DNA from: a virus
Taxonomy: Duplodnaviria; Caudoviricetes
Virus record (IMG/VR): IMGVR_UViG_3300024331_000182
Span: 1 to 59,717 of that record
Direction: 5' to 3' (one strand)
DNA: 59,717 nt
Shown here: one piece after another, positions 4,386 through 46,062 of the stretch
Numbering within the stretch: position 1 is the first letter of the stretch
Layout of the letters: each line of letters starts with the position of its first letter
Position numbers and translations under genes: made by a program
Notes under the pieces: generated by a model
The model's input: the letters and a program-made list of their open reading frames with translations, nothing else
Databases searched by the model: none
Told to the model about the DNA's origin: nothing

Positions 4386-4826
4386 GTGGACGAGGAGCGA
4401 TGGCTTCCGGTACCCGGTTACGCGGGCTTCTACGAGGTGTCTGACCTGGGCAACGTCTGCTCGCTGGCCCGCGCCGCCACGGCCGGAGGGCCGCTCGCCA
4501 TACAGCTCAACAGCAAGGGCTACCGGGTGGTCACCCTGTCTAAGTACGGCCGTTGCCGCACGGTTCCGGTCGGCAGGATGGTACTGGCCGCATTCCGTGG
4601 CCCGGCCAACGGGCGGCGAGCCCGGCACGGGGCGAAGGGCCGGGGTGACGACAGCCTGCCCAACCTAGAATGGCGGTTATGTCCCCGGCAGAGCTGTGCG
4701 TCGTCCTGGACGAGTGGGTCCGGCCCGGCTCCCCCGCATCGGCTTCCTCGCCGGTTACCTGGACTGAGTACTGCTACAAGGTCTACGCGGCCACCCCGCC
4801 CTGGGAGCGTAACCGGTGGGTCATGA
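4386..4826 (+). CDS. NUMOD4-domain protein with degenerate HNH (homing endonuclease remnant)
   Basis: ERWLPVPGYAGFYEVSDLGNV is the NUMOD4 signature; GYRVVTL...VLAAF.GP...RH...NLEW is an eroded HNH. Confidence 0.7.
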   Translation: MDEERWLPVPGYAGFYEVSDLGNVCSLARAATAGGPLAIQLNSKGYRVVTLSKYGRCRTVPVGRMVLAAFRGPANGRRARHGAKGRGDDSLPNLEWRLCPRQSCASSWTSGSGPAPPHRLPRRLPGLSTATRSTRPPRPGSVTGGS

Positions 4827-4951
4827 ACCTGCCCTCGTACCTGGGCCTCCGGGCCGAGATCCCCCTGGCTGGCCGGGTAACGGTCCTGGATGACCTGTTC
4901 GGCATCCCCCTTGAGATCCGCGACAGCGGCGGGCTGCCGCACCTAGAATGA
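4679..4951 (+). CDS. Small protein resembling an HK97 capsid-protein C-terminal fragment
   Basis: RWVMN..SY.GLR....AGR....LFGIPL; N-terminal VVLDEW motif. Confidence 0.45.
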   Translation: MSPAELCVVLDEWVRPGSPASASSPVTWTEYCYKVYAATPPWERNRWVMNLPSYLGLRAEIPLAGRVTVLDDLFGIPLEIRDSGGLPHLE

Positions 4952-4955
4952 CGCC

Positions 4956-5222
4956 ATGCGGCTGCGCGTCGTCATGGACGACTGGACCCGGCCGGCTCCC
5001 GGCACGATGGAGATCGACTCCGGGGCCGGCACTATCCGGATCTGGCTCCGCGAGGGCGAGTTCGTCATCCCCCGGGGCGCGATGACCGTCGAGGAGATGA
5101 TCACGGTTACCGAGCTGGCCCGGAACGGGATGCTGAACGCAGCCGCCCCTGGCGGGATCACCCTCCGGAATGGCAACATGTTCCAGATCGCACCCGGGGC
5201 AATCACGATCACCCTGGCATGA
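4956..5222 (+). CDS. Small hypothetical protein (VVMDDW motif; tail-protein-like fragments)
   Basis: Tightly packed ORF; C-terminus ITLRNGNMFQIAPGAITITL resembles the end of 18063..18503. Confidence 0.5.
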   Translation: MRLRVVMDDWTRPAPGTMEIDSGAGTIRIWLREGEFVIPRGAMTVEEMITVTELARNGMLNAAAPGGITLRNGNMFQIAPGAITITLA

Positions 5223-5428
5223 GCATCCCGATGGCCGTCGTCCTGGATGACTGGTGCTGTAAGCCCGGTACCCGGACCGCCTGGGCGAGAGTGGTGTCCG
5301 GCTGCATCCAGGTCACGGCCGACACCGCGCTGCTCAGTGACCAGCTCATCCAGCTCACCCGGTTTTTCGCGGATGCGGGAACCCCGGACCCGGAAATGCT
5401 GATAGCCCTGGAGCCGGACCGGGACTAG
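5219..5428 (+). CDS. Small hypothetical protein (VVLDDW motif)
   Basis: ATGA-coupled to the previous ORF; shares its N-terminal motif. Confidence 0.5.
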   Translation: MSIPMAVVLDDWCCKPGTRTAWARVVSGCIQVTADTALLSDQLIQLTRFFADAGTPDPEMLIALEPDRD

Positions 5429-5429
5429 G

Positions 5430-5470
5430 GCCAGGCCGGCCGGAGGGAGACTGATCCCGGCCGGCCTGGC
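5430..5470. terminator. Bidirectional hairpin between convergent genes
   Basis: 14-bp inverted repeat GCCAGGCCGGCCGG / CCGGCCGGCCTGGC between stops at 5428 and 5479. Confidence 0.65.
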
Positions 5471-5955: not shown

Positions 5956-7017
5956 CTACAGCTTCTCCGCTAGCTCCAGGAACCGCCGCGCGTTAGCGTC
6001 GAACGTGCGTCCCGCGATGGCCGCCCGCGCCTTGGCCGCCAGCTCCTCGCGTTCCCGGTCGTGCGCCAGCCACCACCGGAGCTGATCGCTGGCGTCCTCC
6101 GGCCCGGTGAAGGCGGGCAGCATAGGGAACGTCTCGTCGCTCTCCGGCCTCGGATCGCGCAGGAAAAACAGCTCGCAGGCCGCCATCTCCACCTCCCTCG
6201 GCCCCATCGAGACACCCTGGACGGACCCCTCTTCGGCCTCGCGCCGGTAGAAGTTGATGCCCGTCTTGCTGTTCCGGTAGAGCCCGGCCGCCTGCGGGTT
6301 GTCCACGCAGTCCGGAGCGCCCTGGATGGTCCCGACATACGGGATGAGGGGAGAGTCCGGTTCCAGGCTGCCCCAGTCGGCGCCGCCGATCAGGACGTCG
6401 ATCCCGTCCAGCCTCATCGCCTCGAAGAACTGCTTGCGCGAGTTGAACGCCGAGCCGATGAACACGAAGTCGGAGGCAAGCTCCGGGTCACGCGGCCCGG
6501 TCCGGGGGTAGTGGACGTCCGGCCTGTAGGCGTGCGGCATGTACTCGCACGGCCCGAACTTGCTGAACTGCGGCAGGCTCGCCGCGTCGTTGAGCAGGTT
6601 CAGGCTGGCGAACGCGCCGCGCACCGCCTGCTCGGAATCCTGGTACGGGCATTCCGTGTGCAGGATGACGACCTTCGGTGCCAGCCTGCTCTGGCGCAGC
6701 AGCCGGAGCGTGTCGGCGCTGGCGAAGAACGCGCTGATGAACAGCACGACGTCCGGTTCCATCCAGAGCACCTGGTGCGAGAGGCCCTGCATCGCGGCCC
6801 ACCAGGCTTCTTCCCGGGTCATGGCCGACTTGACGATCGGGTGGTCCTCTTCGTCCTTAGTTCCGGTATCGATCAGGGCCATGTTGTAAAAAATCAAACG
6901 ATCATTCAAATTATAGCCCGCTACCTGGCATCCTAGCTTAGCCAGCGCGTCCATCCAGCCCGCGTAGACGTCATGAACACTAAAATCCGGGCCAGGGTGA
7001 ACAACTAGAATACGCAC
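5956..7017 (-). CDS. CgeB-like GT-B glycosyltransferase
   Basis: GTG 7017 behind GGGAGG; YMPHAYRPDVHYP, DFVFIGS, YRNSKTGINF, MGPREVEMAAC, AAKARAAIAGRTF. Confidence 0.8.
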   Translation of the reverse strand: MRILVVHPGPDFSVHDVYAGWMDALAKLGCQVAGYNLNDRLIFYNMALIDTGTKDEEDHPIVKSAMTREEAWWAAMQGLSHQVLWMEPDVVLFISAFFASADTLRLLRQSRLAPKVVILHTECPYQDSEQAVRGAFASLNLLNDAASLPQFSKFGPCEYMPHAYRPDVHYPRTGPRDPELASDFVFIGSAFNSRKQFFEAMRLDGIDVLIGGADWGSLEPDSPLIPYVGTIQGAPDCVDNPQAAGLYRNSKTGINFYRREAEEGSVQGVSMGPREVEMAACELFFLRDPRPESDETFPMLPAFTGPEDASDQLRWWLAHDREREELAAKARAAIAGRTFDANARRFLELAEKL

Positions 7018-7232
7018 TCGAACACCACCTCCCTTCGCGGGTAGAAGGAAGACCGGCTCCCGGAGGCCGCGACCATGGCGTCTAGCCGGTACATCCGCCA
7101 CAAGGGCATCTCGCTGGTCTTCCGGTCCGGCTCTGGCGGGGGCGGGGTCGCCCAGTCGTCCACGACGACGGTCAGCAGGTGGCCGGAGCCGGCGCCAGGA
7201 TATTCCGGTCGGCCGGAACGTTCAGGTGTCAT
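7005..7232 (-). CDS. Small hypothetical protein (VVVDDW motif)
   Basis: ATGA-coupled to the upstream ORF; LLTVVVDDW motif. Confidence 0.4.
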   Translation of the reverse strand: MTPERSGRPEYPGAGSGHLLTVVVDDWATPPPPEPDRKTSEMPLWRMYRLDAMVAASGSRSSFYPRREVVFECVF

Positions 7233-10767: not shown

Positions 10768-11721
10768 TCACACACCCACCTTCTGCTTGGGCCGGACGAA
10801 CGCGCGCAGGTTCTCCACCAGCCAGGGGTTGGACTGGATGCGGACCACGCCGATATCGCTGACGCCGGCCACGCCGAAGGGCGCGTCCTTCATCTTGAAT
10901 TCGTCGGCGGCCAGGATGCGGTTCGCCTCGGTGACCTGCCAGGGGACCGCCGTCCAGCCCCAGGTGGTGATGATCTGGACCCGGTTGAGCGGCGAGAACG
11001 GCCAGAGAAACGGGAGCGTCCTCCCGGACGTGATCACCCGCAGCTTCTCGTACGGCCGGATCACCCCGGTAGTGGAGGTGTTGAACCGGTGCTTCCCCCG
11101 GTAGAGCTGGTAATCGACGTCCTTGACCCAGGCCTGCTCGTAGATCCCGTCGCCGTCATAGTCGACGTTGACCGCGATCGTGGTGCCCGGCACGATGTCA
11201 TCCACGGTCAGGTCATAAATGCCCTCTTCCGGGACGAACGTGCGCGTCTCGGTGACCCGGTTAAAATGCCTGCCGCAGTATTCATTCAGCCACCCTGCCG
11301 AGGCGGCGATCGAGGTCTGGAGTTCGTAGTCCTGGCTGGTGTCTGTCAGGGAGATCCCGAGCCGGCCCTTCATCTCCTCCAGGCCCACGTACCAGACCTG
11401 GGAGATATTGGCCGGGAGGACACGCCAGGTGACCGGCTGGACATCGGAGACGGCCCCGGTTCCGATCCACTCCCCGCCCCACAGGCCCAGCGCCGCTGCC
11501 TGGGCCGCCGAGCACGGCACGGCCAGGGTGTACTTCCCGGTGCTGACCTTGGCGATGTCGCTGGGCGAGGCGCCGGCGAACGTGTGGGTGACCGAGGTAT
11601 TGGACGGGTCGGTGACGATGCACGAGACGGTGGTCGGGTCCGCCGGATTCCCGCCGGAGGTAAACGTGTTGGTGAGGAGAGCGACCTCGTTGGCGCTGTC
11701 GTAGAAGACGGTGGCGGTCAC
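10768..11721 (-). CDS. Head-tail connector (gp6/gp15-like) with N-terminal beta-sandwich extension
   Basis: YVGLEEMKGRLG...IAASAGWLNEYCGRHF...TWGW.AVPWQV...KDAPFGVAG; GTG 11721. Confidence 0.75.
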   Translation of the reverse strand: MTATVFYDSANEVALLTNTFTSGGNPADPTTVSCIVTDPSNTSVTHTFAGASPSDIAKVSTGKYTLAVPCSAAQAAALGLWGGEWIGTGAVSDVQPVTWRVLPANISQVWYVGLEEMKGRLGISLTDTSQDYELQTSIAASAGWLNEYCGRHFNRVTETRTFVPEEGIYDLTVDDIVPGTTIAVNVDYDGDGIYEQAWVKDVDYQLYRGKHRFNTSTTGVIRPYEKLRVITSGRTLPFLWPFSPLNRVQIITTWGWTAVPWQVTEANRILAADEFKMKDAPFGVAGVSDIGVVRIQSNPWLVENLRAFVRPKQKVGV

Positions 11722-11951
11722 GGCGCAGGCTCCGGGACCGGGAGAACCGTGCCGTCGTCCAGCACCAGGTCGAACCCCGGCTGGCCCGCTTCCTGCGCGG
11801 AGATCTGCACGTCCGCCCCGTCCAGGATGGTGACCCAGGAACCGGTTTCGCGCCGCACGTACAGATTGCCGTACAGGGCCATCTGGATGATCGCCTCGGA
11901 CAGGTAAGCGTCGTAATGAGCCGGGTTGGACGTATCGAAGGTTTTGGCCAT
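11718..11951 (-). CDS. Small protein resembling a portal-protein fragment
   Basis: GAGGAG then ATG 11951; QMALYGNLYV...ILDGADVQI. Confidence 0.5.
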   Translation of the reverse strand: MAKTFDTSNPAHYDAYLSEAIIQMALYGNLYVRRETGSWVTILDGADVQISAQEAGQPGFDLVLDDGTVLPVPEPAP

Positions 11952-12293: not shown

Positions 12294-12728
12294 TCAGGCG
12301 TAGACCGCCGCGTAGACCGCCGGGTAGACTCCGCCTCTGGTCAGGGTGACGTCATCCTCGGCCGCCCAGGTCACGGTGAGCGCCACGGCCGACCCGACGC
12401 CGCTGCCGAGCTGGTAGTCCGGCAGGACCGGGCCGGAGAAGAACGTCCCGGGGAAATCCCTGCTCGGGTAGAGGTACATGTTTCTCGGGAGTCCGTCCAC
12501 GGCTGCGGCATACGACTGGGATGAGGCGGTGTCATAGAACCCGGAGAAGCTGCCGCTCACGTTCGTTATCCCTGTGCCGTGCACGATCTGGGTGTCCGTG
12601 ATGACGGTGGCGTCGAAGATCTCCCGGGTGACGACGACCTCCCAGCCGGACAGGAAGGCTACCGGGCTGGCCGCGTCGCCGAAGTTGATGCCCAGGTAGG
12701 CGACCCCGCTGCGGCCGTGGATGCGCAT
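12294..12728 (-). CDS. Second tail-tube-like protein (paralogue of 3709..4155)
   Basis: RIHGR.GVAY, FLS.W, F.GFYDTA, DGLPRN.YLYPS and LPDY.L shared with the major tail protein; AGGAGG RBS. Confidence 0.8.
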   Translation of the reverse strand: MRIHGRSGVAYLGINFGDAASPVAFLSGWEVVVTREIFDATVITDTQIVHGTGITNVSGSFSGFYDTASSQSYAAAVDGLPRNMYLYPSRDFPGTFFSGPVLPDYQLGSGVGSAVALTVTWAAEDDVTLTRGGVYPAVYAAVYA

Positions 12729-15085: not shown

Positions 15086-17437
15086 CTAGCTGACACCCGC
15101 CTGCGAGCCGGCTCCTGCTGTTACCGTCGCGGTACTCCCGTTCGCGGGGGAGATTACCGGCTCGGATGCCCCGGCTGCGCTGCCCGGGTAGGTGCTGCCG
15201 TATGCCGTGGTGTACGCGGTGACCTTGCCGCCTTCGGGGGATACCGTGCCGGATGTTCCCGCCAGCTCGCTGACGGCTGCCGCAGACTGCATCGGCTCGG
15301 TGACCGACCACCCGGTGCTGCCGCCCTTGACCTGGGGCGCGCGGCTCGTCCCGGACCCGGCCAGCGACCCGGTTCCGGCCAGGACGGCCATTGCTCGCTG
15401 AACAGCGGCGGCGGCCAGTGATCCGGTTCCGGCCAGGGCGGTGGCCGCCTGCTGGATCACGGTGGCGGCCAGCGATCCGGCTGCGGCCAGGGCGGCGGGC
15501 GGCTGGATCGCTGATCCGGGCGCGTTCAGTGATCCGGCGCCGCCCAGGTTGCCGGACTGCGATGGCGGGGTCGTGGTCAGCGATCCGGTTCCGGCCAGGG
15601 TGGTGGCCGCCTGCTGGATCACGGTGGCGGTCAGCGATCCGGCTGCGGCCAGGGTGGTGCCGGCCTGCTGGGTGACGGCGGCGGCCAGCGATCCGGCTGC
15701 GGCCAGGGTGGCGGGGGCGGCCAGGGTGCCGGGGGCGGCCAGCGACCCGGCACCGCCCAGGGAGCCGCCCTGGACGACACCGCCCGTGACCGACCCGGTG
15801 CCGGCCAGGGTGGCGGGCGCGGCGAGTGAGGACGAGGCTGAGAGCGACGCCTGCCCGCTCAGCGACGTAGGGGCTCCCTGAGCCGCGACCGCCGTCAGGG
15901 AGCCCGCAGCGAATAGCGTGGCGGGCGCCAGGATGGCTGCCGGGGCGGTCAGGGAACCGGCTCCGGCCAGGGTGGCGGGTGCCCGGATCGTGGCGGCCGT
16001 GGTCAGCGAGCCCTGGGCGCCGAGCGAGGTGGGCGCTCCCTGGACGGCTGGTGCCGAGACGGAGCCCTGCGCGCCCAGGGTGGTCCCGGTGGTGCCCTGG
16101 GCAGCGGCCGTGGTCAGCGATCCGCCGCCGCCGAGCGTGGTCCCGGTCGTGCCCTGGACGGCCCCGGTGGTGACCGAGCCCTGACCGCCCAGGGAGCTGC
16201 CGGCGGTCGCCGCCGTATTGACCGACCCGGCGCCGCCGAGAGTGGCCGCCCCGGCGATATTCCCCTGGGCAGACAGGGAACCGGTGCCGGACAGCGTGGC
16301 CACGGCGCCCTGCGTCGCTGCGGCGGCCAGGGACCCCATACCGCCAAGGGTGGCGCCTGCCCCCTGGATCGCGGCCGTGGCCAGGGCGCCGGCCCCGGGC
16401 AGGGTGGCGGGCGCCCCGGTGGTGTCCAGGTTTCCCAGCGATCCGGTTCCGCCGAGCGTGACGGCCGATCGCTGGGTGGCCAGCGCGGCGTCGATATTCG
16501 CGTCGCCCGTCAGGGTGGCCCCGGCCTGCTGGGCAGAGAAAGCGGCGTCGATGTTCGCGTCGCCTGCCAGGGTGGCCCCGGCCTGCTGGGTGACGAGGGC
16601 GGTGTCGACCGAGCCCGTGCCCGCCAGGGTGGCCGCACCCTGGATCGTGACCGCAGACGGCACCGCTGCCGGCAGGGCCTGCCTGTGACGGAATCTGCGC
16701 AGCCAGGTCTTCCCGGGACGGATCAGGGTAACCGGGCTGCTGGCAGCGGCGCCCAGCTTGAATGCCACGATGATCGTGGCCCAGGGCGTCGCCGTACTGA
16801 CGCCGGTTATCGCGAAGCTGGCCGTTTCCGCGCCGTTAGACGAGCTGCCGTACGCGGGCACGCAGTTGAAGACGACCGAGGCGTTGACGGCCTTGGGGTC
16901 CCGCGTATAGGTCGTGCTGCCGGTCGGGACGCCCCAGGTGAGCGTGGACGCCTCGTTGTCACCGCCGACCGCGACCAGGTACTCGCCTGCCGCCGTGGTC
17001 GAATAGGCGCCGCAGGCGACGCTGCCGTTCGAGGCAATGGACCCGGTACTGGTGACGGCGGTGCCGTCGATCATCGCGGCCAGGGTGTTCCCGGCAGCCA
17101 GCCCGGGGACTTCCTGGATGACCATGCCGAACGACTGGTTGCCGCCCGTCTGCGTTGCCGTGAGAGTCGGCTTCGTCCCGACATCCCCGCTTGGCGTGTC
17201 CATCGCCCAGACAGACAGCTCGCCGTTCGCGGCCACGTTGTTGAGAAACGCCGACCCGACCTTGGTCATGGCGTTGAGAGCGCCGTCTTTGATGGCGGTG
17301 ACCTGGGGGTTACTGCCTCCGCTCGTGCAGATGAAGGCGATCAGCTTGGTGCCGGCCTGGACGTTGGCGGTGGTGAACGAGACCGCAGCGGCACCCGGGT
17401 CCAGGGTGGCGCTGTTGGACTGGAGCGGCGTTACCAC
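15086..17437 (-). CDS. Large A/G/T/S-rich repetitive virion/fibre protein
   Basis: N-terminal beta domain followed by many approx. 19-aa ATL(A/G)G.GSL repeats. Confidence 0.7.
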   Translation of the reverse strand: MVTPLQSNSATLDPGAAAVSFTTANVQAGTKLIAFICTSGGSNPQVTAIKDGALNAMTKVGSAFLNNVAANGELSVWAMDTPSGDVGTKPTLTATQTGGNQSFGMVIQEVPGLAAGNTLAAMIDGTAVTSTGSIASNGSVACGAYSTTAAGEYLVAVGGDNEASTLTWGVPTGSTTYTRDPKAVNASVVFNCVPAYGSSSNGAETASFAITGVSTATPWATIIVAFKLGAAASSPVTLIRPGKTWLRRFRHRQALPAAVPSAVTIQGAATLAGTGSVDTALVTQQAGATLAGDANIDAAFSAQQAGATLTGDANIDAALATQRSAVTLGGTGSLGNLDTTGAPATLPGAGALATAAIQGAGATLGGMGSLAAAATQGAVATLSGTGSLSAQGNIAGAATLGGAGSVNTAATAGSSLGGQGSVTTGAVQGTTGTTLGGGGSLTTAAAQGTTGTTLGAQGSVSAPAVQGAPTSLGAQGSLTTAATIRAPATLAGAGSLTAPAAILAPATLFAAGSLTAVAAQGAPTSLSGQASLSASSSLAAPATLAGTGSVTGGVVQGGSLGGAGSLAAPGTLAAPATLAAAGSLAAAVTQQAGTTLAAAGSLTATVIQQAATTLAGTGSLTTTPPSQSGNLGGAGSLNAPGSAIQPPAALAAAGSLAATVIQQAATALAGTGSLAAAAVQRAMAVLAGTGSLAGSGTSRAPQVKGGSTGWSVTEPMQSAAAVSELAGTSGTVSPEGGKVTAYTTAYGSTYPGSAAGASEPVISPANGSTATVTAGAGSQAGVS
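15340..16640 (-). repeat. Intragenic tandem repeats encoding ATLAGxGSL units
   Basis: Recurring DNA such as gcggccagcgatccggctgcggccagggtggc; near-identical blocks around 15411-15500 and 15582-15710. Confidence 0.75.
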
Positions 17438-18062: not shown

Positions 18063-18503
18063 CTAGAACCCGCCCGCGCTGATCGCGCCCGCTGCCACGG
18101 CGAACGTGTTGCCGTTCGCGACGGAGATCGGCTGGCCGTTCCAGTTCCCGTACCAGACCCGGATCGGCGCGGCGTCGGTGATCTCCAGCGAGACGATCGA
18201 CCAGGAGCCGCCCGAGCCGTTCGTCCAGGAGATCGTGCCGGCCGCGCCGGGCATGGTGACGTTCGACCCGGCCGAGCTGGACGTCGACTGGGTGGAGAAC
18301 GCGGTCCCCCCGGAGGTGTACCCGGTGCCGGTGATCTCGGTTCCCGAGGCCGACCCGGTGCTGGCCGTGGAGGTCAGCTTGAGCTTCATCGCGCCCGCGT
18401 TCAGCGCGGCGAGCTGGGAGCCGGGGACCCCGGCGGCACCGACCGGCAGGTTGGCGTTGAGCATGCCCGAGCTGCGGGTGGCGTCGATCGCGGTCTGCGC
18501 CAT
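18063..18503 (-). CDS. Small minor tail/fibre-associated protein
   Basis: TEITGTGYTSGG...ISW...ISVANGNTFAVAAGAIS pattern of actinophage minor tail proteins. Confidence 0.65.
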   Translation of the reverse strand: MAQTAIDATRSSGMLNANLPVGAAGVPGSQLAALNAGAMKLKLTSTASTGSASGTEITGTGYTSGGTAFSTQSTSSSAGSNVTMPGAAGTISWTNGSGGSWSIVSLEITDAAPIRVWYGNWNGQPISVANGNTFAVAAGAISAGGF

Positions 18504-18504: not shown

Positions 18505-18963
18505 TCAGGACACCTGTCCCGCCAGCGTGACCTCGGCCGAGCCGGGCAGCATGGTGATGATCAGCGGGCGGCAGACGGTGCAGGACGGGATGGACGCATG
18601 ACAGTGGCCGCCTGGGCACGGCGGGATATCGTCGTCCGCCGCGTGATCCGGCCCCAGCAGCGGGTGCGCCCCCCGGTAAAGCGGGTGCCGCGCGTCGGCC
18701 GTGGAGTCACGCCAGACCCTGCACCTGCCCGGCTCCTCGGGGCACGCCTCGTTCTCGTGACCGCCGGGGCAGGCGTTGGCCATGGCCGCGTGGTCGTGAT
18801 CTTCTGAGCAGCAGCCCGCGTCCGGCGCGCAGGCGAGGTTGGCGTCTATGTCGGAATGGGGGCACTCGTCGTGGTGCTCCCCCAGGGTAAGGAGGTGTTC
18901 CGGCGGGCAGGTGCACTCCAGGAAGACCTGGGTCATGCAGCCGGCGCACTGAACCTGGATCAA
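18505..18963 (-). CDS. Cys/His-rich hypothetical protein
   Basis: 15 Cys and 12 His in 152 aa; TTG start behind GGAAGG; stop abuts next ATG. Confidence 0.6.
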   Translation of the reverse strand: MIQVQCAGCMTQVFLECTCPPEHLLTLGEHHDECPHSDIDANLACAPDAGCCSEDHDHAAMANACPGGHENEACPEEPGRCRVWRDSTADARHPLYRGAHPLLGPDHAADDDIPPCPGGHCHASIPSCTVCRPLIITMLPGSAEVTLAGQVS

Positions 18964-21385: not shown

Positions 21386-21421
21386 GATGCACGGCCTCCG
21401 CGAGAGCACTGGGTCTGGTAC

Positions 21422-29383: not shown

Positions 29384-29562
29384 CGCGGCGTGATCCCCAG
29401 GCTGTCCAGCGCCCGGAAGGCAGGCGCGTCGCGCGGCATGTCCGGCGGCCGGAAGCTCTCCCCGTGCAGGTAGCCGAGCGCATACCCGGCCCGGACGGCC
29501 CGCGCGGCCTCTTCGCTCACCAGCAGGGTCAGCTTCTCCAGGTCGGTCATCACGGCGCTCAC
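29380..29562 (-). CDS. Small hypothetical protein
   Basis: Coupled on both sides. Confidence 0.45.
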   Translation of the reverse strand: MSAVMTDLEKLTLLVSEEAARAVRAGYALGYLHGESFRPPDMPRDAPAFRALDSLGITPR

Positions 29563-36500: not shown

Positions 36501-37760
36501 CTACGAGCTGGCGCCGACGTAGACCTTGATGGCACCGGTCCGGTCGACCAGGGTGCCGTCGCCGCGCAGGATCGCACGGAACGTAACCAAGTCGCTACCG
36601 AACGCGAAGTCATCCGACCTCTCGAACCGGACGCCGCCCACCAGGCGGACGAAGTACTGCGAAAAATCACCAAAGGCGATCGACTTCGCAGAGGTGGCCT
36701 GGGCGGGCATGAACGGGTCCGCGACCAGCGGCTTCCCGAGCAGGAGGTCCGGGCTCCCGAGCACGGCCGAGGGCTCCCATATGGGTCTGCCCACGGTGTC
36801 CGTGATCTTGCGGAAACCTCCGATGGTCTTGTCCGCTGCCAGCCAGTAGCAGCTTCGTGACTGTCGATAGGGAGCGATGACGCTGTATTCGAGGTCTACG
36901 AGGTTGGCGTAGCTTGGTGCGCCGGAAACACCCGTAACCGCACCAGTGACACCCGTGGTGGCGGTGGTAACGATACCAGACGGCTGGTTGGTGCCGGTGC
37001 CGTTCACCAGGTCGTTGCCGAAGGCGTTGCCGAGCGCGCGGCCGGCCTGCATGGCGAGGTAGCCGAGCAGGTCGACAGCCGTGTCATCGATCAGCTCGCG
37101 GGCGACCTGGAGCATGACGCCGTACTTCCACGCGGAAAGCGGCTGCATGTTGAAGGCCGGGTCCGAGGTCGGGAGCGAGCCCGCCTGCGCTGCCGAGGCC
37201 GCCGTCGAGTGCGCGGTCGTCTTCGGCACCTGGAGCGTCTCGCCGCCGCCCGTGTTCAGGACGGTGGGACCGCACTGCATGACACCGCTCACTTCGATCA
37301 GGTGTGCGATGAGCATGTCGTAAAAGTCCGTGGGTACGATACTACTTGCGTTTGTACCCTGCGCACCTGTGGTAAGTACCCGGTAGTTGACCGGGCCGAG
37401 AGCCGGGTCGCGGCGGACTTCCAGCGAACGGCCGGCGCCCTCCTCGCCCCTGGCCCACTTGCGGACCTCTTCCAGCATCTTGGCCCCGCCGGCGGTGCGC
37501 TGGGCCTGCCCCTGCTCGGGCTTGCGGCCGGAGAGGTTGTCGAACGCCTCGTCCGCTTCCTTCTGCCGCTTCTCCGTGTCCAGGACCGCGCGGATGCGCG
37601 TGTCCAGCTTGCCCATCTCCTCCTGGAGGGCGTCCCAGCGGCCCTGCTCCTCGTCGGTCAGGGCGCGGTTCTCCTCGGCCGCCGTCTCGGCGATGCCCTT
37701 GGCGTCGTTCCAGACGTTCATCCGCCGGTCGCGGAGCCGCTTTGCCACTTCTGATGCCAT
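36501..37760 (-). CDS. Major capsid protein, HK97 family
   Basis: N-terminal coiled-coil delta domain; ELIDD, NGTGTNQPSGI, GRPIW, LLGKP, IAFGDFSQY, FRAILRGDG. Confidence 0.95.
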   Translation of the reverse strand: MASEVAKRLRDRRMNVWNDAKGIAETAAEENRALTDEEQGRWDALQEEMGKLDTRIRAVLDTEKRQKEADEAFDNLSGRKPEQGQAQRTAGGAKMLEEVRKWARGEEGAGRSLEVRRDPALGPVNYRVLTTGAQGTNASSIVPTDFYDMLIAHLIEVSGVMQCGPTVLNTGGGETLQVPKTTAHSTAASAAQAGSLPTSDPAFNMQPLSAWKYGVMLQVARELIDDTAVDLLGYLAMQAGRALGNAFGNDLVNGTGTNQPSGIVTTATTGVTGAVTGVSGAPSYANLVDLEYSVIAPYRQSRSCYWLAADKTIGGFRKITDTVGRPIWEPSAVLGSPDLLLGKPLVADPFMPAQATSAKSIAFGDFSQYFVRLVGGVRFERSDDFAFGSDLVTFRAILRGDGTLVDRTGAIKVYVGASS

Positions 37761-37863: not shown

Positions 37864-38874
37864 CTACTCCTCGTCCGCGTAAGGGTCAGCCATGTTGTTC
37901 TGGAGGGCCAGGAGGGCCTGCGCGCCGGTCATGGCGAGACGCGGCCTAGGCCGGCTGGCGGGTTGCGGGGCCTTCCGCTGGCCGGTGTTGTCAGTGCGCT
38001 TGAAGAACTCCACCCCGCGCCCGTTCTGGAGCATCGAGCGGACCTCCTCGGGGTCGCCCTGCACCCAGTTGGCCAGCGATTCGACCGCGCCGTTGAGCGC
38101 CCGCGCGCCGGACGTCGCATCCGGGTACGCGGGGTCCAGGACCGGCGCCACGTCCACGAGTTGGACGTCGAGCAAGGTGCGCATGGGGTAGTTGAACTCG
38201 GACAGGCCCCACTCGTCGCCGCCGGGGTAGACCCTGAAAGCGAACGAGCTGTGCCGGACGTCGCCGCGCTCCACGTACTCCAGCACGTCGGCCCGCGCCT
38301 GCGGGGGCTGGACCTCGTAGACCAGGCCGGTCTCGTCGGTGGCCAGGCGCAGCGTCCGGGCGTGCGTGGTACCCAGGAGCCAGTCGTCCTTGTGGTTGTA
38401 CCGGCACACGACGTCGGGCCAGCCGTCCGTCTTGGACGTGGTGAAGGCCGACCGCGCCACCTGCTCCACGAACCCGCCCAGCTTGCGGCTCAGCCGGTCG
38501 TAGCACGCGGCATACCCGTAGATCATCGTCGGGCCGTGGTCCTGGGTCCGCAGCTCCGGCGGGAACCGGGTGAACCGGCGCTCCGGGAACCCGGACGTGT
38601 CGACATCCAGCCCGAGCGCGGCCCGCTGGTCGCCGGAGACGTTGACCCCGAACTTGCGCGCGGCGGCCAGGATCTTCGGCATCGCGTTCTTGCCGAACGG
38701 GCTCTGCGGTGCCCTGGCCAGGGCGTTCTGGGTGTGCTCCCGGTCGTGGACGGGAAAGTGCCGCTTGCCCCTGGGGGTCGTCTTCCCCGTCTGGTCCTTG
38801 GTGCCGCCAGGCTCGATATAGGCAAAAGCCGAATCGGGCAGGTCATTGATGGCGGCAGTGGTTAGTTCAGCCAT
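37864..38874 (-). CDS. HK97-type prohead protease with N-terminal DUF6582-like domain
   Basis: GYAACY, GGFVEQV, YNH, D.TGL.YEV, SSFAF, LVDVAPV..PAY; N-terminal NDLPDSAFA...FPVHD..H..NALAR. Confidence 0.9.
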   Translation of the reverse strand: MAELTTAAINDLPDSAFAYIEPGGTKDQTGKTTPRGKRHFPVHDREHTQNALARAPQSPFGKNAMPKILAAARKFGVNVSGDQRAALGLDVDTSGFPERRFTRFPPELRTQDHGPTMIYGYAACYDRLSRKLGGFVEQVARSAFTTSKTDGWPDVVCRYNHKDDWLLGTTHARTLRLATDETGLVYEVQPPQARADVLEYVERGDVRHSSFAFRVYPGGDEWGLSEFNYPMRTLLDVQLVDVAPVLDPAYPDATSGARALNGAVESLANWVQGDPEEVRSMLQNGRGVEFFKRTDNTGQRKAPQPASRPRPRLAMTGAQALLALQNNMADPYADEE

Positions 38875-38904: not shown

Positions 38905-40557
38905 TCAGTGATCAGCCCCTGTCCTGCCATTGACACCGTTCAGCAGCAGCGTCCTGGGCGCCGGTATCCACGCGCCCACGAATTCGGGCTCGCCGTCCAG
39001 GCCGTTACCGACGCGGCCCCACGAGCCGTGACGCTGGTTCTTGCCTGGCGCGAACCGTCCGTACTCCCTGGCGAGATCCTGGACGAGGTGCTCGGGAAGC
39101 ATGATGCCGAGCCGCCCGAAAGCCTCAGCTATATCACGGACATCACGCAGGTCAGCAGCCCCGCGCCAGCCGTTACCGCCTCGTTGCTGTCCGATGACCT
39201 GGCTGAGTTCCTTGGCCGGGGTGGTCGCCACCGGGGGAACGCCCGGCATGTCCGGCATCGCCAGGCCCTCATGCTGCATCTTCTCCAGCCGGTCGGCAGC
39301 CAGGTCCATCTCCAGGGTGATGGAGTCCAGCATCGAGTTCGGGATGCCACGGATGCTCCGGGACATCGCGACCATGACCTCCAGCGGGATGTTCTCCCCG
39401 CCGGCCTTGCCCGGCAGCGGCGGCAGGTCTTCCAGGTCGCGCAGCTCATCGGTGGTGCGAAGGCCGATGGCGCGCTGCTGGGCGTAGATCTCGGTCCGGG
39501 TCTTGAGATCGGTCTTGAGCATCGCGTCGCTGTCGAACCGGACGTACCGGTTGGCGGGCAGGATGTTGAAGAAGGCGTGCTCCAGCCGGACCAGCCACGG
39601 CCGCATCGCCTCGATGATCTGGAGGGTGGACTGCTCCACGTTCGAGTACGTCAGGCTGTCGCCCCTGGTGCCCCCGATCCGCTCAGCCGGGAGACCGAGG
39701 ATGGCCGCCACCTGGCTCGCGTTCATCCTGATCGCATCAATAAATTGCGCCTCAGAAGGCGGAACTGTTACCGGTTTGTAATCCCAGTCACGCCCGTACA
39801 CCAGAGGCTCGCGCCGGCGGATGGTCGCGGTGAGCATCGAGCGGATCTCCTCGGCCTGGTCCGAGTCGATCTCTATCTCGCTGTTCTGGAACGTCCCGGG
39901 CGGGAACCCGCCGCTCTTGTACCAGTCGGTGCCGTACCGGGCGGCTTCGAGCCCGCTCAGGATGGTGAGGGCGAACGCGCGCAGCAGCGAGATCCCCTCG
40001 GTGCGCCCGGCGAGGCTGAACGCCTTGACGTGGAACAGCTCGCGGCGCCAGTCCTCCATCAGGCGGCCGTAGACGTACACCCGGGTCCGCATCGGGTTCC
40101 ACGGCTGCATCTCGTCATCGACGCAGTTGACGTCCTCCGGCGGAATCCACTCGATCCCGGTGGGGTAGCCGTAGCCGTCGCGGCCGGTGATGAAGCCCCA
40201 GGCGTTGCCCTGGAGGACCAGGCTGGTCATCATCGTGAACAGCCAGTCGAACAAGGTGCCGTCCACGGACGGCATGTCGAAAATGGACGGGCCATGCCAC
40301 CGGACGGGGGCGGCGTCCGCGTTCGGCCGCGTGTAGATCTTGAGCGGCAGCGCGGCTACGGAGTCGGCCAGCAGCCGGGCGCCGGAGTACAGCGCGGGCA
40401 GGCCCAGCGCCTCGTCCTGGCCGTAGAACGCGCGGGTGGGGTGGATAGGCCCGCCCGTGGAGAACTTCCAGAAAGGATTTTCCCAGGGACGCCAGGGGAC
40501 GCCGCCGATGACGCGCTGCTCGGAACGGCTGGCCTGGATGCGCTCAACTAGCCCCAC
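38905..40557 (-). CDS. Portal protein, HK97 family
   Basis: GTG 40557; LADSVAALPL, LVLQGNAW, G.S.L, EAQFI, YSNVEQ, T.DE.R.LEDLPP; long C-terminal tail. Confidence 0.92.
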   Translation of the reverse strand: MGLVERIQASRSEQRVIGGVPWRPWENPFWKFSTGGPIHPTRAFYGQDEALGLPALYSGARLLADSVAALPLKIYTRPNADAAPVRWHGPSIFDMPSVDGTLFDWLFTMMTSLVLQGNAWGFITGRDGYGYPTGIEWIPPEDVNCVDDEMQPWNPMRTRVYVYGRLMEDWRRELFHVKAFSLAGRTEGISLLRAFALTILSGLEAARYGTDWYKSGGFPPGTFQNSEIEIDSDQAEEIRSMLTATIRRREPLVYGRDWDYKPVTVPPSEAQFIDAIRMNASQVAAILGLPAERIGGTRGDSLTYSNVEQSTLQIIEAMRPWLVRLEHAFFNILPANRYVRFDSDAMLKTDLKTRTEIYAQQRAIGLRTTDELRDLEDLPPLPGKAGGENIPLEVMVAMSRSIRGIPNSMLDSITLEMDLAADRLEKMQHEGLAMPDMPGVPPVATTPAKELSQVIGQQRGGNGWRGAADLRDVRDIAEAFGRLGIMLPEHLVQDLAREYGRFAPGKNQRHGSWGRVGNGLDGEPEFVGAWIPAPRTLLLNGVNGRTGADH

Positions 40558-40700: not shown

Positions 40701-41444
40701 TCAGACGGCGGCCTGGGCCGGGTCGCTCCGGGCATAGTAGTCCAGGGTGATCTCCGGCACGTAGGTCCAGGAGGCCCCGGCTTCCAGCCACCGGTCTACC
40801 AGGTGCCAGTCGGCGGGGCGGCCGGACGGCTCCCAGTTCGCGGTCTCCAGCAGCCCGGCCCGGTGCACGATCAGCGACGTGTCGATCTGCCCGAACACGG
40901 GCCGGGGGCAGCCGATCTCCCAGGTCTTGCCGATCGTGCCGTTCCGGCACAGTGCCCGGCTGTAGGCGAAGGACACGCCCTCGCGCGTGATCGCGTCCGC
41001 GAGCAGCCGCAGGTGCCCGGGGCGCCAGGCGTTGTCGTCGTCCAGGTAGGCGATCAGGTCCCCGGTGGCCAGCCGGGTCCCGGCCATCCTGGCCCAGATG
41101 CCCCGGTTCGGCGCGATCCGGTGCTCTGGCAGGAAGGTGACGCCGGGCAGGTGATCCAGGGCCGGGTCGGGGCCGTCGCTGACGATGACGTGCTCCACCT
41201 CGCCGTCGTAGTCCTGCGCGGCCACGGACGGGATGCACCGGGACAGCAGCAGCCGGGCGCGCTGCCAGGTGGGTGTGATGACGCTGATCTTCGGCTTGCG
41301 GCCCAGCACGGCGGCGGTGAACGCGCGGGCAGCTCGTACAGCGGCACGGACCATATGGAAGTGCATCAGCACGGCAGCGCGGGCGATGTGCGGGTGCACG
41401 GCCACGGCCGCAATTGCGAGGTGGGCGTGCACCGCTGCCGACAC
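40701..41444 (-). CDS. Glycosyltransferase family 2 (paralogue of 26386..27003; start uncertain)
   Basis: ISVITPTWQR, RCIPSV, VSDGPD, IAYLDDDN, DW.LV. Confidence 0.85.
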   Translation of the reverse strand: MSAAVHAHLAIAAVAVHPHIARAAVLMHFHMVRAAVRAARAFTAAVLGRKPKISVITPTWQRARLLLSRCIPSVAAQDYDGEVEHVIVSDGPDPALDHLPGVTFLPEHRIAPNRGIWARMAGTRLATGDLIAYLDDDNAWRPGHLRLLADAITREGVSFAYSRALCRNGTIGKTWEIGCPRPVFGQIDTSLIVHRAGLLETANWEPSGRPADWHLVDRWLEAGASWTYVPEITLDYYARSDPAQAAV

Positions 41445-41562: not shown

Positions 41563-42003
41563 TCAGCCGTCCAGCCAGGAGTGGCGGACCACCTGGAGCG
41601 GCTCGGCCGCCGCCTCGGTCCGCACAAGATCGTGATACTCCTCCGGATGCCTGCGGGCCAGCTCGGCCATGGCCCGGAGCTGCGGCGGCCACCGCCGTCC
41701 CTCACATCCCGGGGAGGGCTCGGCCCAGGACTTGAGGGCGGTCCACAGGGCCTTCTCCTCGGTCTGGCCCCGGATCAGGTTCGTCCCCGGGCCACCCATC
41801 CTGGCCCGGACCGTGACCTCCGGCGGGCCGGCCACGGTGACCGCGTACGGGGAGCTGAACGTATGGACGTTCTGGACGCCGCGTTCCATGGTCACGTCCA
41901 CGTCCATTACGTCGCCGGAGACAGCCAGGCCGTCATCCTGGCCGCCGCCCAGGGTGCCTACGTAAAGCAGCCAGCCGTACCGGAAGCTGATCCTGGACAT
42001 CAA
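41563..42003 (-). CDS. Hypothetical protein
   Basis: Coupled to the upstream ORF. Confidence 0.45.
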   Translation of the reverse strand: MMSRISFRYGWLLYVGTLGGGQDDGLAVSGDVMDVDVTMERGVQNVHTFSSPYAVTVAGPPEVTVRARMGGPGTNLIRGQTEEKALWTALKSWAEPSPGCEGRRWPPQLRAMAELARRHPEEYHDLVRTEAAAEPLQVVRHSWLDG

Positions 42004-42272
42004 CGGGCCGGTGGCTTCTGTTCCTCCGGGGTGCCCTTCGGCGGGAGCCCGGCGCCGCTGCGGAACCCGAAGATGACCGCCTCGGCCAGGTAGGCGCCTG
42101 TCAGCCAGAGCCGTCCGCCAGTCCAGCCGAGGACGACCAGGCTGCGGCCGGCCAGCCAGCCCAGGGCGGCGAACAGGGCTCCGGTGGCGGCGGCGAGCGC
42201 GTAGCCGGGGCGGAAGGAACGGCTGGCGGCCCGCTCGCGCAGCTCATCAACGGGAAGCTCGGCAGTGGTCAT
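42000..42272 (-). CDS. Small membrane protein
   Basis: Hydrophobic central helices. Confidence 0.55.
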   Translation of the reverse strand: MTTAELPVDELRERAASRSFRPGYALAAATGALFAALGWLAGRSLVVLGWTGGRLWLTGAYLAEAVIFGFRSGAGLPPKGTPEEQKPPAR

Positions 42273-43138: not shown

Positions 43139-44995
43139 TCAGGCTCCTGACATCCAGTTCGCGCCCTGCCTGCGGGACGGGCCGGCAACCGACTTCACCG
43201 GGTCGTAGTTCCGGCGCCGCGCGTCCATGGCCCACAGGGCGTTGGTCGCGCTGGTGATCGGGGTAATGTCGGATTCGCTGTCGCGGCGGGACCAGGCTTT
43301 CCCGCCGTCGCCGACGTCGCGGGTCTCGGCCGAGGCGACCGACGACCACAGCCCCGGGGCCTGCTGGCGGCCGAGGTGGATCAGGCCGCCGTTCCGGCCC
43401 CTGCGCACGGTGGTGACCATGAGGCTGAACGCGGCGGCCTCCTCGGCGCTGGACATCCAGGTGATATCCAGGCCCACGGCCGCCGCCTCGCCCGCCAGGC
43501 CGGACGCCGGGCCGTTCTTGGGCGCGACGATGACCAGCGGGCGCCAGGCGCGGCGCAGTTCCGCCAGGCGGGGGATGACCCAGCTCGTGCCCTCCCGCGA
43601 GCAGCCGCGCGGGATCTCCACTACCGGCCTCGGCAGCTCCAGCAGGACTTCGCGGCCGAGGCCGGCCTTGGCCAGCTTGCGGGCGTCGTCGTCCCACACG
43701 GCCGGCCTGATCCAGCAGGACGCGATCGTCGCGGAGATCATGTCCGGGTCGACGTCGAACGCGAAGCACACGGGCCGGGTGGCGCCGCCGGGCTCGGGCA
43801 TGGCGCACGCCTGCCAGTGCTCCTCGGACACCACAGCCCAGGCCTCGTCCTCGGACGGCCACTCCCCGACGCCCAGCACCTCGCGGTCGAAAGCCGTCAT
43901 GGACATCGCGGCCATCTCCTGGGCCACATGCTGGACGCTGATCCGCCTGCCGAGCGCGGGGTTGGCCTTGGCCCAGGAACGCGGATCGTCCCGGTCGTCG
44001 TGCCGGGTGCAGGTGACGTACCGGTTGGTCTTGCGGCCCTTCACCTCGTCCCGGGGGCACATGTCGTTGTGCGGGCTGATCGACCACTCGGCGCCCATGA
44101 CGAGCGGGTCCTTGCGCAGGACGCGGCGGCGGACGGCGCCGAGCTGCACCGAGTCCTGGAGTCCCGCGCTGGCGGTGTAGATCACCTGCGGGTTGGCCAC
44201 GGCCGACAGGGTGGGCAGCGACGCGCCGACCACCTCGTCGGACAGGATCATGGCCTCGTCGTACACCACCAGGTCGGCGGTGAATGACCGGCCCGACCCC
44301 CGGGACCTGGCCAGGAACCGGAGCCGGGCGGCGACGCTGCGGCTGATCCTGCGGCCTTCCGAGCCGAAGATCAGGGTCGGGGTCGGCTTGAGTTCGATAG
44401 CCTCGTCACCGTGAGACGTGGTGACCGATTTAACCCGGCGCCGGAGATCGTCGTAATTGACAACGACATCCCTTACCCGGCGGAAATGTTCGGCCGCCGC
44501 TTTAAATTCATGGGCGGTATGAATTATCATGCGGTCACCGAGAATGAAAAGGCCGCCGAGTTCCCGGACTTCCAGGATCTGGTTTTTTCCATTCTGGCGG
44601 CTTACCATGAGGTAATTCTCGAATGCGGACCAGCGCCCGTCCGGCTTTATCCCGCACGATTCTCTCAGCCACCAGGACTGCCATTCGTCCAGCAGGTAGC
44701 CGTACTCCTCCGCGAACTCCAGCAGCTCCGAGGAGGCATAATCCCCGCAGCCGAGACCGGGATACCCGTCCGGGTGGGTGCACACCGGGCACTGCGGGTC
44801 CTTGACCCGGTGCCTCGGCGGGGAGGTCCAGAACCGGGGGGCCTGCTGGCCGTACAGCTTCCCGCCGCCCGGCGACCCGCCGCGCACCACCGTGCCATCC
44901 GGCAGCCAGACGTCGGGAATGACGGTGAGCGGCGGCTGGGGCATGCCGGAACCGGGGCCTTTCGAGCGGGGGAAGAAGGCTCCCGGCTCCGGCAT
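43139..44995 (-). CDS. terL: Terminase large subunit
   Basis: WQ adenine motif, SRQNGK Walker A, HTAHEF, LVVYDEA Walker B, YTASAG, W.KANPALG, FAFDVD. Confidence 0.93.
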   Translation of the reverse strand: MPEPGAFFPRSKGPGSGMPQPPLTVIPDVWLPDGTVVRGGSPGGGKLYGQQAPRFWTSPPRHRVKDPQCPVCTHPDGYPGLGCGDYASSELLEFAEEYGYLLDEWQSWWLRESCGIKPDGRWSAFENYLMVSRQNGKNQILEVRELGGLFILGDRMIIHTAHEFKAAAEHFRRVRDVVVNYDDLRRRVKSVTTSHGDEAIELKPTPTLIFGSEGRRISRSVAARLRFLARSRGSGRSFTADLVVYDEAMILSDEVVGASLPTLSAVANPQVIYTASAGLQDSVQLGAVRRRVLRKDPLVMGAEWSISPHNDMCPRDEVKGRKTNRYVTCTRHDDRDDPRSWAKANPALGRRISVQHVAQEMAAMSMTAFDREVLGVGEWPSEDEAWAVVSEEHWQACAMPEPGGATRPVCFAFDVDPDMISATIASCWIRPAVWDDDARKLAKAGLGREVLLELPRPVVEIPRGCSREGTSWVIPRLAELRRAWRPLVIVAPKNGPASGLAGEAAAVGLDITWMSSAEEAAAFSLMVTTVRRGRNGGLIHLGRQQAPGLWSSVASAETRDVGDGGKAWSRRDSESDITPITSATNALWAMDARRRNYDPVKSVAGPSRRQGANWMSGA

Positions 44996-45009
44996 GCCGG
45001 CCTCGGGTG

Positions 45010-45273
45010 TCAGGCCATCGTATTACCTGACCAGCCGAACGTGCAGGCCCGGCACAGGTGCTTCCCGCCGTGGCCGGGCGCGGCCGAGCAGGTGTGCTCG
45101 CCATTCTTCTCCGGGCAGGTCTTCGCCATCGCCCGGCGCTTCTCCAGCACGAAAACCAGGTCACGCAGGTCATGCTCGCTCAGGGAGCTGATCACCCACG
45201 GGTTATGCCAGGGCCGGGTGAGCACCAGATCGTGCTCGCCGTCCACAGCGCTGTCGCGGACATCGACGTCCAT
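45010..45273 (-). CDS. Hypothetical protein with Cys/His motif
   Basis: HTC....GH.G.HLC..C; TGATG coupling. Confidence 0.5.
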   Translation of the reverse strand: MDVDVRDSAVDGEHDLVLTRPWHNPWVISSLSEHDLRDLVFVLEKRRAMAKTCPEKNGEHTCSAAPGHGGKHLCRACTFGWSGNTMA

Positions 45274-45491
45274 CAGCCGTTCCCGCTGACTACCGGGACC
45301 GGTGCTGCCTGAGCCGGCTCGTACGGGGGCATCGTCGGCGGGGGAACGGTGCGGGTCACGACGGTCACCGGATGCGTGCCCCCGGAAGCGGTGGTGCTGC
45401 CCATGATGAACCCGATGCCGAGCCCGAAGGCGAGGGCGGCCAGGGCGGCGAGCAGGGGGCTCCAGTGACGGCGGCGGGGGCTGTCCTGCAC
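45273..45491 (-). CDS. Small single-pass membrane protein
   Basis: One hydrophobic helix followed by a P/T-rich tail. Confidence 0.5.
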   Translation of the reverse strand: MQDSPRRRHWSPLLAALAALAFGLGIGFIMGSTTASGGTHPVTVVTRTVPPPTMPPYEPAQAAPVPVVSGNG

Positions 45492-45494
45492 GGC

Positions 45495-45884
45495 CTACTC
45501 CCCCGCGTCGGCGGCGGCCAGGCGGCGCTGCCTCTTGGCGGCCAGCTCGTCGGTCTTGTCGCCCTTCCGCTCACCCGGGGCCAGCTCGCGCAGCACCGTG
45601 AGGCCCTGACGGATCTCGCGGGCGTGGGAGGCGGCGTCGCGGCCGGCGACGAATCCCCGGTCGAGATCCTGGGCCAGGCCGATGAGATTCGCGGCGATAC
45701 CGCCCTCGCGCAAGTCATCCGGGAGCAGCCGGAGATCCCGGCGGACGCCCTTCTCCCGTGGCCCGATGGGCGGCCTGCGGGTCCGTGGCGGCGGGGGAGG
45801 TGCCGGTTCACGTCGCGGGGCCGGGGCCGGGTCCAGCAGGTCCAGCGCGCTCGGGGCCGTCTCCGGTGCTGTCTTGCGGGGCAT
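45495..45884 (-). CDS. terS: Terminase small subunit (putative)
   Basis: LA..LD...A...RE.R..L..L...DKTDELAAKRQRR upstream of terL; GAGGAG RBS. Confidence 0.65.
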   Translation of the reverse strand: MPRKTAPETAPSALDLLDPAPAPRREPAPPPPPRTRRPPIGPREKGVRRDLRLLPDDLREGGIAANLIGLAQDLDRGFVAGRDAASHAREIRQGLTVLRELAPGERKGDKTDELAAKRQRRLAAADAGE

Positions 45885-46062
45885 CTGAGATCTCCTCGAT
45901 CTGATAGATGCGCCGCACCGGTACCTCGCCCGTATCGTCCCATTCGTCCCCGCCCGGATAGACGCGGAAGCGGGTGCCGGGCTCCGGCGGCTCGCAGTAC
46001 CACTCTTGCACGATTCCAGCTTTCTCGTCCCAGAACACCTCGTGCGGGGCGGGTTCAGCCAT
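45808..46062 (-). CDS. Small protein containing a prohead-protease-like segment
   Basis: FRVYPGGDEW is identical to a stretch in 37864..38874. Confidence 0.5.
   Translation of the reverse strand: MAEPAPHEVFWDEKAGIVQEWYCEPPEPGTRFRVYPGGDEWDDTGEVPVRRIYQIEEISDAPQDSTGDGPERAGPAGPGPGPAT

Follow-up and report, generated by a model that had tools for sequence, protein, structure and literature searches.

A small phage protein that probably shares a segment with prohead proteases, and other short genes of an uncultivated virus

The question raised by IMG/VR virus record IMGVR_UViG_3300024331_000182 is whether short genes scattered through a phage genome can be fragments of its own virion proteins. We analysed the complete record, a linear stretch of 59,717 bases with a completeness estimate of 28%, hereafter called the window. 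An initial annotation had singled out five short open reading frames (ORFs) for their likeness to the prohead protease, the portal, the capsid protein, the tail tube and a tail-region protein, and all the strings quoted for this are present at the places given for them. Two of the five parallels, those with the protease and the tail-region protein, are above chance. Those with the portal, capsid and tail tube are at chance level in every sequence and profile comparison, and the theme of scattered virion-protein fragments thereby dissolves. On balance we favour the reading that the five ORFs are small accessory genes with no relation to one another, and that only the mini-gene at 45808-46062 is protease-like. 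The features that matter for this reading are the following:

45808..46062, minus strand: mini-gene, 84 amino acids (aa), conserved core at residues 1-58
45880..45981, minus strand: S78-like segment of the mini-protein, residues 28-61, holding FRVYPGGDEW and PVRRIYQIE
37864-38874, minus strand: prohead (capsid maturation) serine protease, Peptidase_S78 (Pfam PF04586, E 7e-28; phrog_80, E 5e-29)
38146..38250, minus strand: protease segment aligned to the mini-family by hhalign, residues 209-243 (SSFAFRVYPGGDEW...MRTLLDVQLVDVA), starting at the serine motif

The mini-protein and its family

A codon model, for which the window itself was the training set, called about 95 genes, and these were scanned against PHROGs and Pfam. 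The mini-protein carries FRVYPGGDEW at residues 32-41, and the identity claimed for this 10-mer is exact, the same string being found at residues 213-222 of the protease. No other string of at least 7 residues occurs in more than one of the 96 called proteins. In 1000 shuffles that preserved composition a 10-mer was never shared, the longest shared string being a 9-mer, seen in 8 shuffles, and BLASTP within the window aligned the mini-protein to the protease over 32 residues (E 3.9e-4). At the DNA level 24 of the 30 bases are identical and all six differences are synonymous, so that a recent copy or gene conversion is excluded.

Within the protease, FRVYPGGDEW directly follows SSFAF, and the entire stretch is nearly invariant in 18 related proteases. 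Several distant proteases of cultured phages have FRVAPDGDEW or FRVSHDGENW at the same position, and the 10-mer is therefore a conserved S78 motif. The consensus of the mini-protein family covers six of its residues (F, R, V, D, E and W), and YPGG includes a two-residue insertion that is present in about 5 of 123 family members. As a separate observation, residues 36-59 of the protease ORF, in its N-terminal extension, match phrog_16160, a 69-aa PHROG of unknown function (E 3.9e-8); the S78 domain begins near residue 108.

A word-based protein search with 45808-46062 returned one protein. HMMER, run with a profile of six sequences on a set of 1.84 billion cluster representatives, gave 282 matches at E<=0.001, 28 of them at E<=1e-10. 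Among the 150 matches listed the lengths range from 52 to 276 aa, mostly 55-80, and none is protease-sized. The family alignment consists of the window protein and the 122 matches of up to 110 aa (123 rows); 28 longer matches and two proteins from another search were left out. Its consensus reads Y..EW.C.PP..G..(F/Y)RV.R(D/E)EW....PVR.IYEI. Pfam yielded no family for the window mini-protein at E<=10 and none that was matched by more than 14 of the 123 members; one member matched PHROGs, to an unnamed family, and NCBIfam matched no member. Ten representatives that we looked up come from metagenomes, and the sole name they bear is "hypothetical protein". A tblastn search with two members against 50,697 GenBank phage records gave no match.

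An AlphaFold2 model built on the 123-row alignment has six short strands, with a predicted local distance difference test (pLDDT) of 90.4 and a predicted template modelling score (pTM) of 0.70. According to this model the mini-protein folds as a small six-strand beta barrel. Foldseek found no match to the model in the PDB at E<=0.001. We conclude that the mini-protein is a member of an old, widespread and uncatalogued family of autonomous small beta-barrel proteins, and not a retained fragment of the phage's own protease, as had been suggested.

The mini-gene has syntenic homologs in four more distant relatives (L021, L008, L026 and L011; 35-53% identity), where it sits just upstream of the homolog of gene 45495-45884. 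This conservation, together with a profile match to proteases over 33-34 columns, takes the likeness beyond the ten shared residues. In the window the G/P/A-rich tail of the mini-gene overlaps 45495-45884, and its start overlaps the stop of the gene before it as TGATG. Its GC content at the third codon position (GC3) is 0.75; that of most window genes is 0.85-0.95. The neighbours are:

46062..46340, minus strand: CPGC-motif protein, 92 aa, with an N-terminal CPGC..C, directly upstream of the mini-gene with stop/start overlap
43139-44995, minus strand: large terminase

The mini-gene lies 0.8 kb upstream of the large terminase gene in the window, and in the four relatives where both are present it lies about 3-6 kb upstream, with its orientation unchanged relative to the terminase. 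Two fusions were seen. In the 185-aa protein P0032 the mini-domain forms the C-terminus, and the N-terminus is like the product of 46062-46340 (13 of 25 residues identical, E 1e-5). In P0140 a cysteine cluster and a helix-turn-helix below threshold come after the mini-domain. The mini-protein would be co-translated with the small CPGC-motif protein, to which it is fused in some relatives, and most likely acts as a binding module late in infection.

Homology to S78 proteases weighed against convergence

Profile comparison by hhalign gave 68.9% for a three-sequence mini-family against the proteases of the phage group, with 22 other targets at or below 1.3%, and 72.7% over 34 columns for the 123-sequence family, with 21 control families at or below 1.7%. 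As the phage group's protease alignment is nearly one sequence, a diverse S78 alignment was built from 12 proteases of cultured phages, chosen from 40 listed of 488 tblastn matches. Their hosts are Ralstonia, Lactobacillus, Klebsiella, Streptomyces, Rhizobium, Serratia, Enterococcus, Halomonas, Mycobacterium, Ruminococcus, Geobacillus and Staphylococcus. Against this set the mini-family scored 91.0% when the window protease was included and 88.8-90.0% when it was excluded (score 35.9-36.7, P about 2e-6, 33 columns). The controls remained far below: 200 column shuffles reached at most 16.8, the reversed profile 8.8 and 17 other window families at most 15.5. In a search of BFVD with the mini-protein, three matches (ranks 4, 11 and 35) bear the name prohead protease, and two long ones (ranks 34 and 47) the name major capsid protein. 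These align locally over 28-33 columns (root-mean-square deviation, rmsd, 1.8-2.6; 27-36% identity), none being significant alone. The window protease itself had no solved relative in the PDB at E<=0.01.

The segment in common with Peptidase_S78 (PF04586) spans about 33 columns from the serine motif and follows the pattern F.V...(D/E)EW....(V/I)R.I..(I/V).L. The two differ in most other respects. The S78 domain has about 150 aa and the mini-protein about 60; the mini-protein has an extra N-terminal hairpin with W.C.PP, has no C-terminal scaffold part and stays below the Pfam threshold, the gathering score of PF04586 not being reached at a search cutoff of E<=10. The serine motif of the protease holds what we take to be the catalytic serine. 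When the two are aligned by hhalign, the second S of SSFAF falls on Gly29 of the mini-protein, a position that is G in 82 of the 123 members, and nothing in the mini-protein aligns to the part of S78 N-terminal of the serine motif, so that the histidine-bearing region is absent. With glycine in the serine column and no histidine region, the mini-protein is non-catalytic and cannot be a protease.

From these comparisons we think that the 33-residue segment is homologous to S78 proteases, with the odds moderately in favour. The last four strands (residues 28-61) would then correspond to the S78 segment SF.F.V...DEW....R.I..v.L, and the mini-protein would be a non-catalytic mini-domain derived from the protease.

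Several observations weigh against this reading. The match is short (33-34 columns) and was scored without secondary structure, and the N-terminal half of the mini-domain (EW.CEPP) has no S78 counterpart. In Pfam, only 2 of the 123 members touch PF04586, the better one at E 0.17 with 12.5 bits where the cutoff is 21, and 14 members touch the unrelated BTG family, showing that motif-level coincidences do occur; a PDB sequence search with the family profile returned only BTG and Tob (E 0.3-1.4). A fold scan of 48,161 PDB chains reached a best Z of 3.6, and its weak rows were OB-fold domains, not proteases: PriB, SSB and RPA show a whole-domain likeness to the model at Z 2.6-3.6 and rmsd 3.5-4 over 55-58 residues, scores far under the reliable level and with no sequence likeness. 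The fusions to the CPGC-motif protein and to a sub-threshold helix-turn-helix are as compatible with a function in nucleic-acid binding or regulation as with one in the capsid. In L002 and L030, the closest relatives, the mini-gene is missing and there is no room for it, and the ratio of nonsynonymous to synonymous substitution rates (dN/dS) between the mini-genes of L021 and L008 is 1.07 (59 codons).

The alternative that these points favour is a convergent or accidental likeness, the mini-family being an independent OB- or SH3-like barrel that perhaps binds nucleic acid or is regulatory. Convergence on a beta-meander motif is a possible source of the S78 resemblance. We consider this explanation distinctly less probable than homology, though it deserves to be taken seriously. 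The match climbs from 72.7% to 88.8-90% when diverse proteases are used and the window protease is removed, it lies far above the 200 shuffles and the 17 control families, and prohead proteases recur in the weak BFVD matches with low local rmsd.

The parallels to portal, capsid, tail tube and tail-region protein

The other ORFs for which a virion-protein counterpart had been proposed have no family in Pfam, PHROGs or NCBIfam. Two of them lie among genes of the minus strand, where the structural genes concerned are also found:

11718..11951, minus strand: lineage-restricted gene, 77 aa, overlapping the start of 10768-11721 by 4 nucleotides (nt)
41563..42003, minus strand: gene between the large terminase and the portal, 146 aa, with the conserved C-terminal helical region RRWPPE...ARRHPEEY
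38905-40557, minus strand: portal
36501-37748, minus strand: HK97-type capsid protein

The product of 11718-11951 had been likened to a portal segment. It gave no BLASTP alignment to the portal at E<=1, scored 0.1% by hhalign against 30 portals and had no Pfam match at E<=10, hence none to Phage_portal PF04860. Homologs of 11718-11951 lie directly upstream of the homolog of 10768-11721 in 6 loci, with dN/dS (NG86) of 0.30-0.59. In L040 the protein is 49% identical, though its neighbour is 96% identical there, and a collection of 5.8 billion proteins holds four such proteins including the query.

The proposed counterpart of the capsid C-terminus, noted as 4679-4951 and called here as 4670-4951, did no better (no BLASTP alignment at E<=1; hhalign 0.6% with 16 capsid proteins), and it too had no Pfam match at E<=10, hence none to HK97 Phage_capsid PF05065.

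For 41563-42003 a weak echo of the tail tube had been read from the string TVAGPPE. At the level of sequences and profiles this echo is absent (no BLASTP alignment at E<=1; hhalign 1.7 and 0.2), and TVAGPPE falls within an inserted stretch missing from 3 of 5 aligned homologs. An AlphaFold2 model with pLDDT 70 shows long strands followed by three helices and gave no fold match, tube included. Low-grade leads to TP901-1-type tube clusters, which the Atlas offered on the basis of a model with pLDDT 0.48, were thus not borne out, although the protein may all the same have a tube fold. Homologs were found in 5 of the first 38 loci and in about ten related contigs in all, and their C-terminal motif is invariant. 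A protein of L071 that looks unrelated has ARRHPEEY as well, but this locus was found through the same pattern, so that the occurrence carries no weight. Both 11718-11951 and 41563-42003 are genuine, fast-evolving genes restricted to the phage group. In a genome of 69% GC, short motif parallels of small ORFs with virion proteins are mostly chance.

The remaining parallel takes us to a small island of plus-strand ORFs that sit among minus-strand tail genes:

4389..4673, plus strand: NUMOD4 / HNH-like homing-endonuclease gene, frame open to 4826, directly upstream of the three ORFs below
4670..4951, plus strand: ORF 1 of three tandem paralogs, 93 aa, GC by codon position 0.66/0.51/0.85
4956..5222, plus strand: ORF 2, second paralog, 88 aa, dN/dS 0.39-0.57
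5219..5428, plus strand: ORF 3, third paralog, 69 aa, the weakest candidate gene
18063..18503, minus strand: tail-region protein, 146 aa, conserved in 7 loci at 72-90%

The initial annotation had stated that 4956-5222 ends like 18063-18503 and has a motif of tape measures, and the first part of this stands. The last 17-18 residues, ITLRNGNMFQIAPGAIT in 4956-5222 (positions 5154-5207) and ISVANGNTFAVAAGAIS in 18063-18503 (positions 18078-18131), share 9 of 17 residues and 34 of 51 nt. The hhalign probability is 84.5% (score 36.2, 17-18 columns), and none of 200 column shuffles exceeded 21.5; BLASTP within the window gave E 0.027, which by itself is within noise. The likeness is thus above chance but short. 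Judged at the level of sequence it is little more than a conserved match, and both families are narrow. The LREGEFVIP motif is present in 4956-5222, but the link to tape measures is not borne out: no tape-measure match was found, with no Pfam family at E<=10, no PHROG and no NCBIfam hit. An Atlas search with 4956-5222 gave nothing usable. For 18063-18503 Pfam gave nothing beyond a sub-threshold hit to Gp80, a family of fibre proteins (E 0.097). This gene adjoins 18505-18963, which encodes a very Cys/His-rich protein of 152 aa with CxxC- and HxH-like clusters that is 53-73% identical in 6 relatives.

The endonuclease gene matches NUMOD4 (PF07463) at E 4.8e-12, with 46.4 bits against a cutoff of 23.4, and is conserved through "...SLPNLEW" in 7 relatives. 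A putative HNH C-terminal motif, "...RHGAKGRGDDSLPNLEW", was read by eye alone, and no HNH model matched. The three ORFs that follow have in common the N-terminal motif VV(L/M)D(D/E)W.(R/K)P (hhalign 9-62%, 10-13 columns), and the DNA at the junction between the endonuclease end and the first ORF start recurs at the junction of the first and second ORFs. A 15-bp near-palindrome, GTCGTCCTGGACGAC (GTCGTCC.GGACGAC, one mismatch each), opens each of the three ORFs at 4700-4714, 4968-4982 and 5237-5251. With up to 2 mismatches allowed it has 14 matches in the window against 0.41 expected. At the ORF starts it encodes VVLDD and may therefore be explained by the protein motif.

Phage accessory genes in variable islands beside homing endonucleases are likewise short, fast-evolving, patchy and without family, and lie by a NUMOD4/HNH gene. 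The island 4670-5428 differs from them in its three tandem paralogs, their common N-terminal motif and the duplicated junction. The paralogs would have arisen by local duplication beside the NUMOD4/HNH gene, in a variable island between tail genes. They are weakly constrained and may be decaying.

A stronger form of the last point is that the three ORFs are non-functional, open frames that persist where the surroundings of the homing-endonuclease gene were duplicated and decayed, and it is to these ORFs only that recombination debris, an option of the initial annotation, might apply. Substitutions are spread nearly evenly over codon positions, with mismatches against L040 and L041 of, e.g., 0.28/0.26/0.28, and in 5219-5428 positions 1 and 2 change more than position 3. 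The dN/dS values range over 0.39-1.17 for the three ORFs, two of them lying at 0.65-1.17 (0.65-0.75 for 4670-4951 and 1.17 for 5219-5428); core genes have 0.06-0.42 and other small genes 0.43-0.93. The ORFs occur in only two related contigs, L040 and L041. The first is 57% identical there; the second has two proteins in the large protein collection, query included, one of them 99% and the other 59% identical to it; the third is found only in L041 (53% over 47 aa), L040 being without most of it (140 gapped positions). One promoter-like and no terminator-like site was found. Set against decay are the gene-like GC3 of 0.85-0.89 with GC1 above GC2, as in real genes of the window, the frames of 4670-4951 and 4956-5222 that are open in both relatives at about 25% nucleotide divergence, the dN/dS of 4956-5222, and the equally high values of accepted small genes (e.g., 42000-42272 at 0.71-0.93). 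We therefore regard loss of function of all three as rather doubtful; the ORFs may be fast-evolving genes or decaying ones.

The phage group and possible roles of the mini-family

The window has a GC content of 66-75% (about 69%), and most of its genes are on the minus strand. Its head module is HK97-type. For the capsid protein no match among the 50,697 GenBank phage records exceeds 32% identity; Pontimonas and Streptomyces phages and cyanophages are among those that rank highest. DNA of the window was found in 11 sequencing runs of soil or freshwater DNA, and no RNA run was listed with them. Relatives in IMG/VR are on contigs of 131-210 kb (L003/L045/L065, L011, L021/L072, L029/L075 and L053/L074). 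The size of these contigs and the 28% completeness of the record suggest that the phage group may have large genomes. A pattern scan with the small alignment A6 found 4 loci in viral contigs, all of the same phage group, and no match in genome contigs. On the favoured reading, the phage would be a large, uncultivated soil phage of high GC, and the five ORFs would be accessory genes unrelated to each other, with no set of virion fragments among them.

Further regions of the window are:

40701-41405, minus strand: GT2 glycosyltransferase, between terminase and portal
20.3-32 kb, minus strand: sugar-modifying enzyme block
3.7-19 kb, minus strand: tail-region genes

The set of sugar-modification genes is large (20312-32066, plus 5956-7101 and 40701-41405) and includes two NAD-dependent epimerase/dehydratases, a C-methyltransferase, a cupin, GT1 and GT2 glycosyltransferases and a GH5 cellulase-family protein; the GT2 at 40701-41405 is a paralog of 26386-27003 (41% identical). 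In the tail region, 3709-4155 and 12294-12728 are major-tail-protein-like paralogs (45% identity, E 5.5e-37), the former conserved at 82-98% among relatives. The 783-aa protein 15086-17437 has internal DNA repeats at 15358-16688, with 66-75% identity across hundreds of bases. A DNA methyltransferase is encoded on the opposite strand (47624-48532, plus), and 50867-51322 and 52754-54916 encode a Macro-domain protein and an FtsK/SpoIIIE-like ATPase.

What a non-catalytic relative of the prohead protease might do can be considered in the light of work on the cyclic oligonucleotide-based antiphage signalling system (CBASS). According to one preprint, all isolated type I CBASS escapers of T1-like phages had substitutions in the prohead protease, some of them adjoining its catalytic serine (Richmond-Buccola et al., 10.1101/2023.05.21.541620). 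According to a preprint by Hobbs and Kranzusch (PMC12991175), prohead proteases activate CBASS through cutting a loop of the CD-NTase. The CBASS trigger belongs to the same enzyme family as the one that the mini-protein resembles. In their available portions these studies describe protease point mutations and CD-NTase loop cleavage, and no phage protease-like mini-protein.

One reading would make the mini-protein a "dead" protease-derived mini-domain that has kept the strands near the active-site serine and binds the prohead protease's targets, delaying or shielding their cleavage. The targets may be cleavage sites in capsid or scaffold, or the protease-sensitive activation loop of the CBASS CD-NTase. 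We rate this as improbable, a speculation beyond the homology itself.

The least credible proposal is the original one, in which virion-protein fragments titrate defence sensors or poison the assembly of competitors: one ORF does have a protease-like segment, another the C-terminal motif of a tail-region protein, and prohead proteases are reported in the two sources cited as determinants and direct activators of CBASS, but three parallels out of five do not rise above chance, the protease-like ORF comes from an old family with its own fold and differs from the resident gene at the DNA level by synonymous changes alone within the 10-mer, and the Pfam, PHROGs and NCBIfam scans showed no defence-related family. 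No report of decoys made from virion-protein fragments was found in the portions of the literature available, which is no proof that none is in print.

Taken together, the window leads to a large family of mini-proteins from phages in which the serine-adjacent segment of the protease is present and its catalytic residues are not, and which none of Pfam, PHROGs and NCBIfam contains. Should these proteins modulate the protease or the way it is recognised, they would form a new class of proteins that regulate maturation or counter defence. If the mini-protein does act as a dead mini-domain, it would represent a widespread and so far undescribed way of timing head maturation or of blunting protease-sensing immunity.

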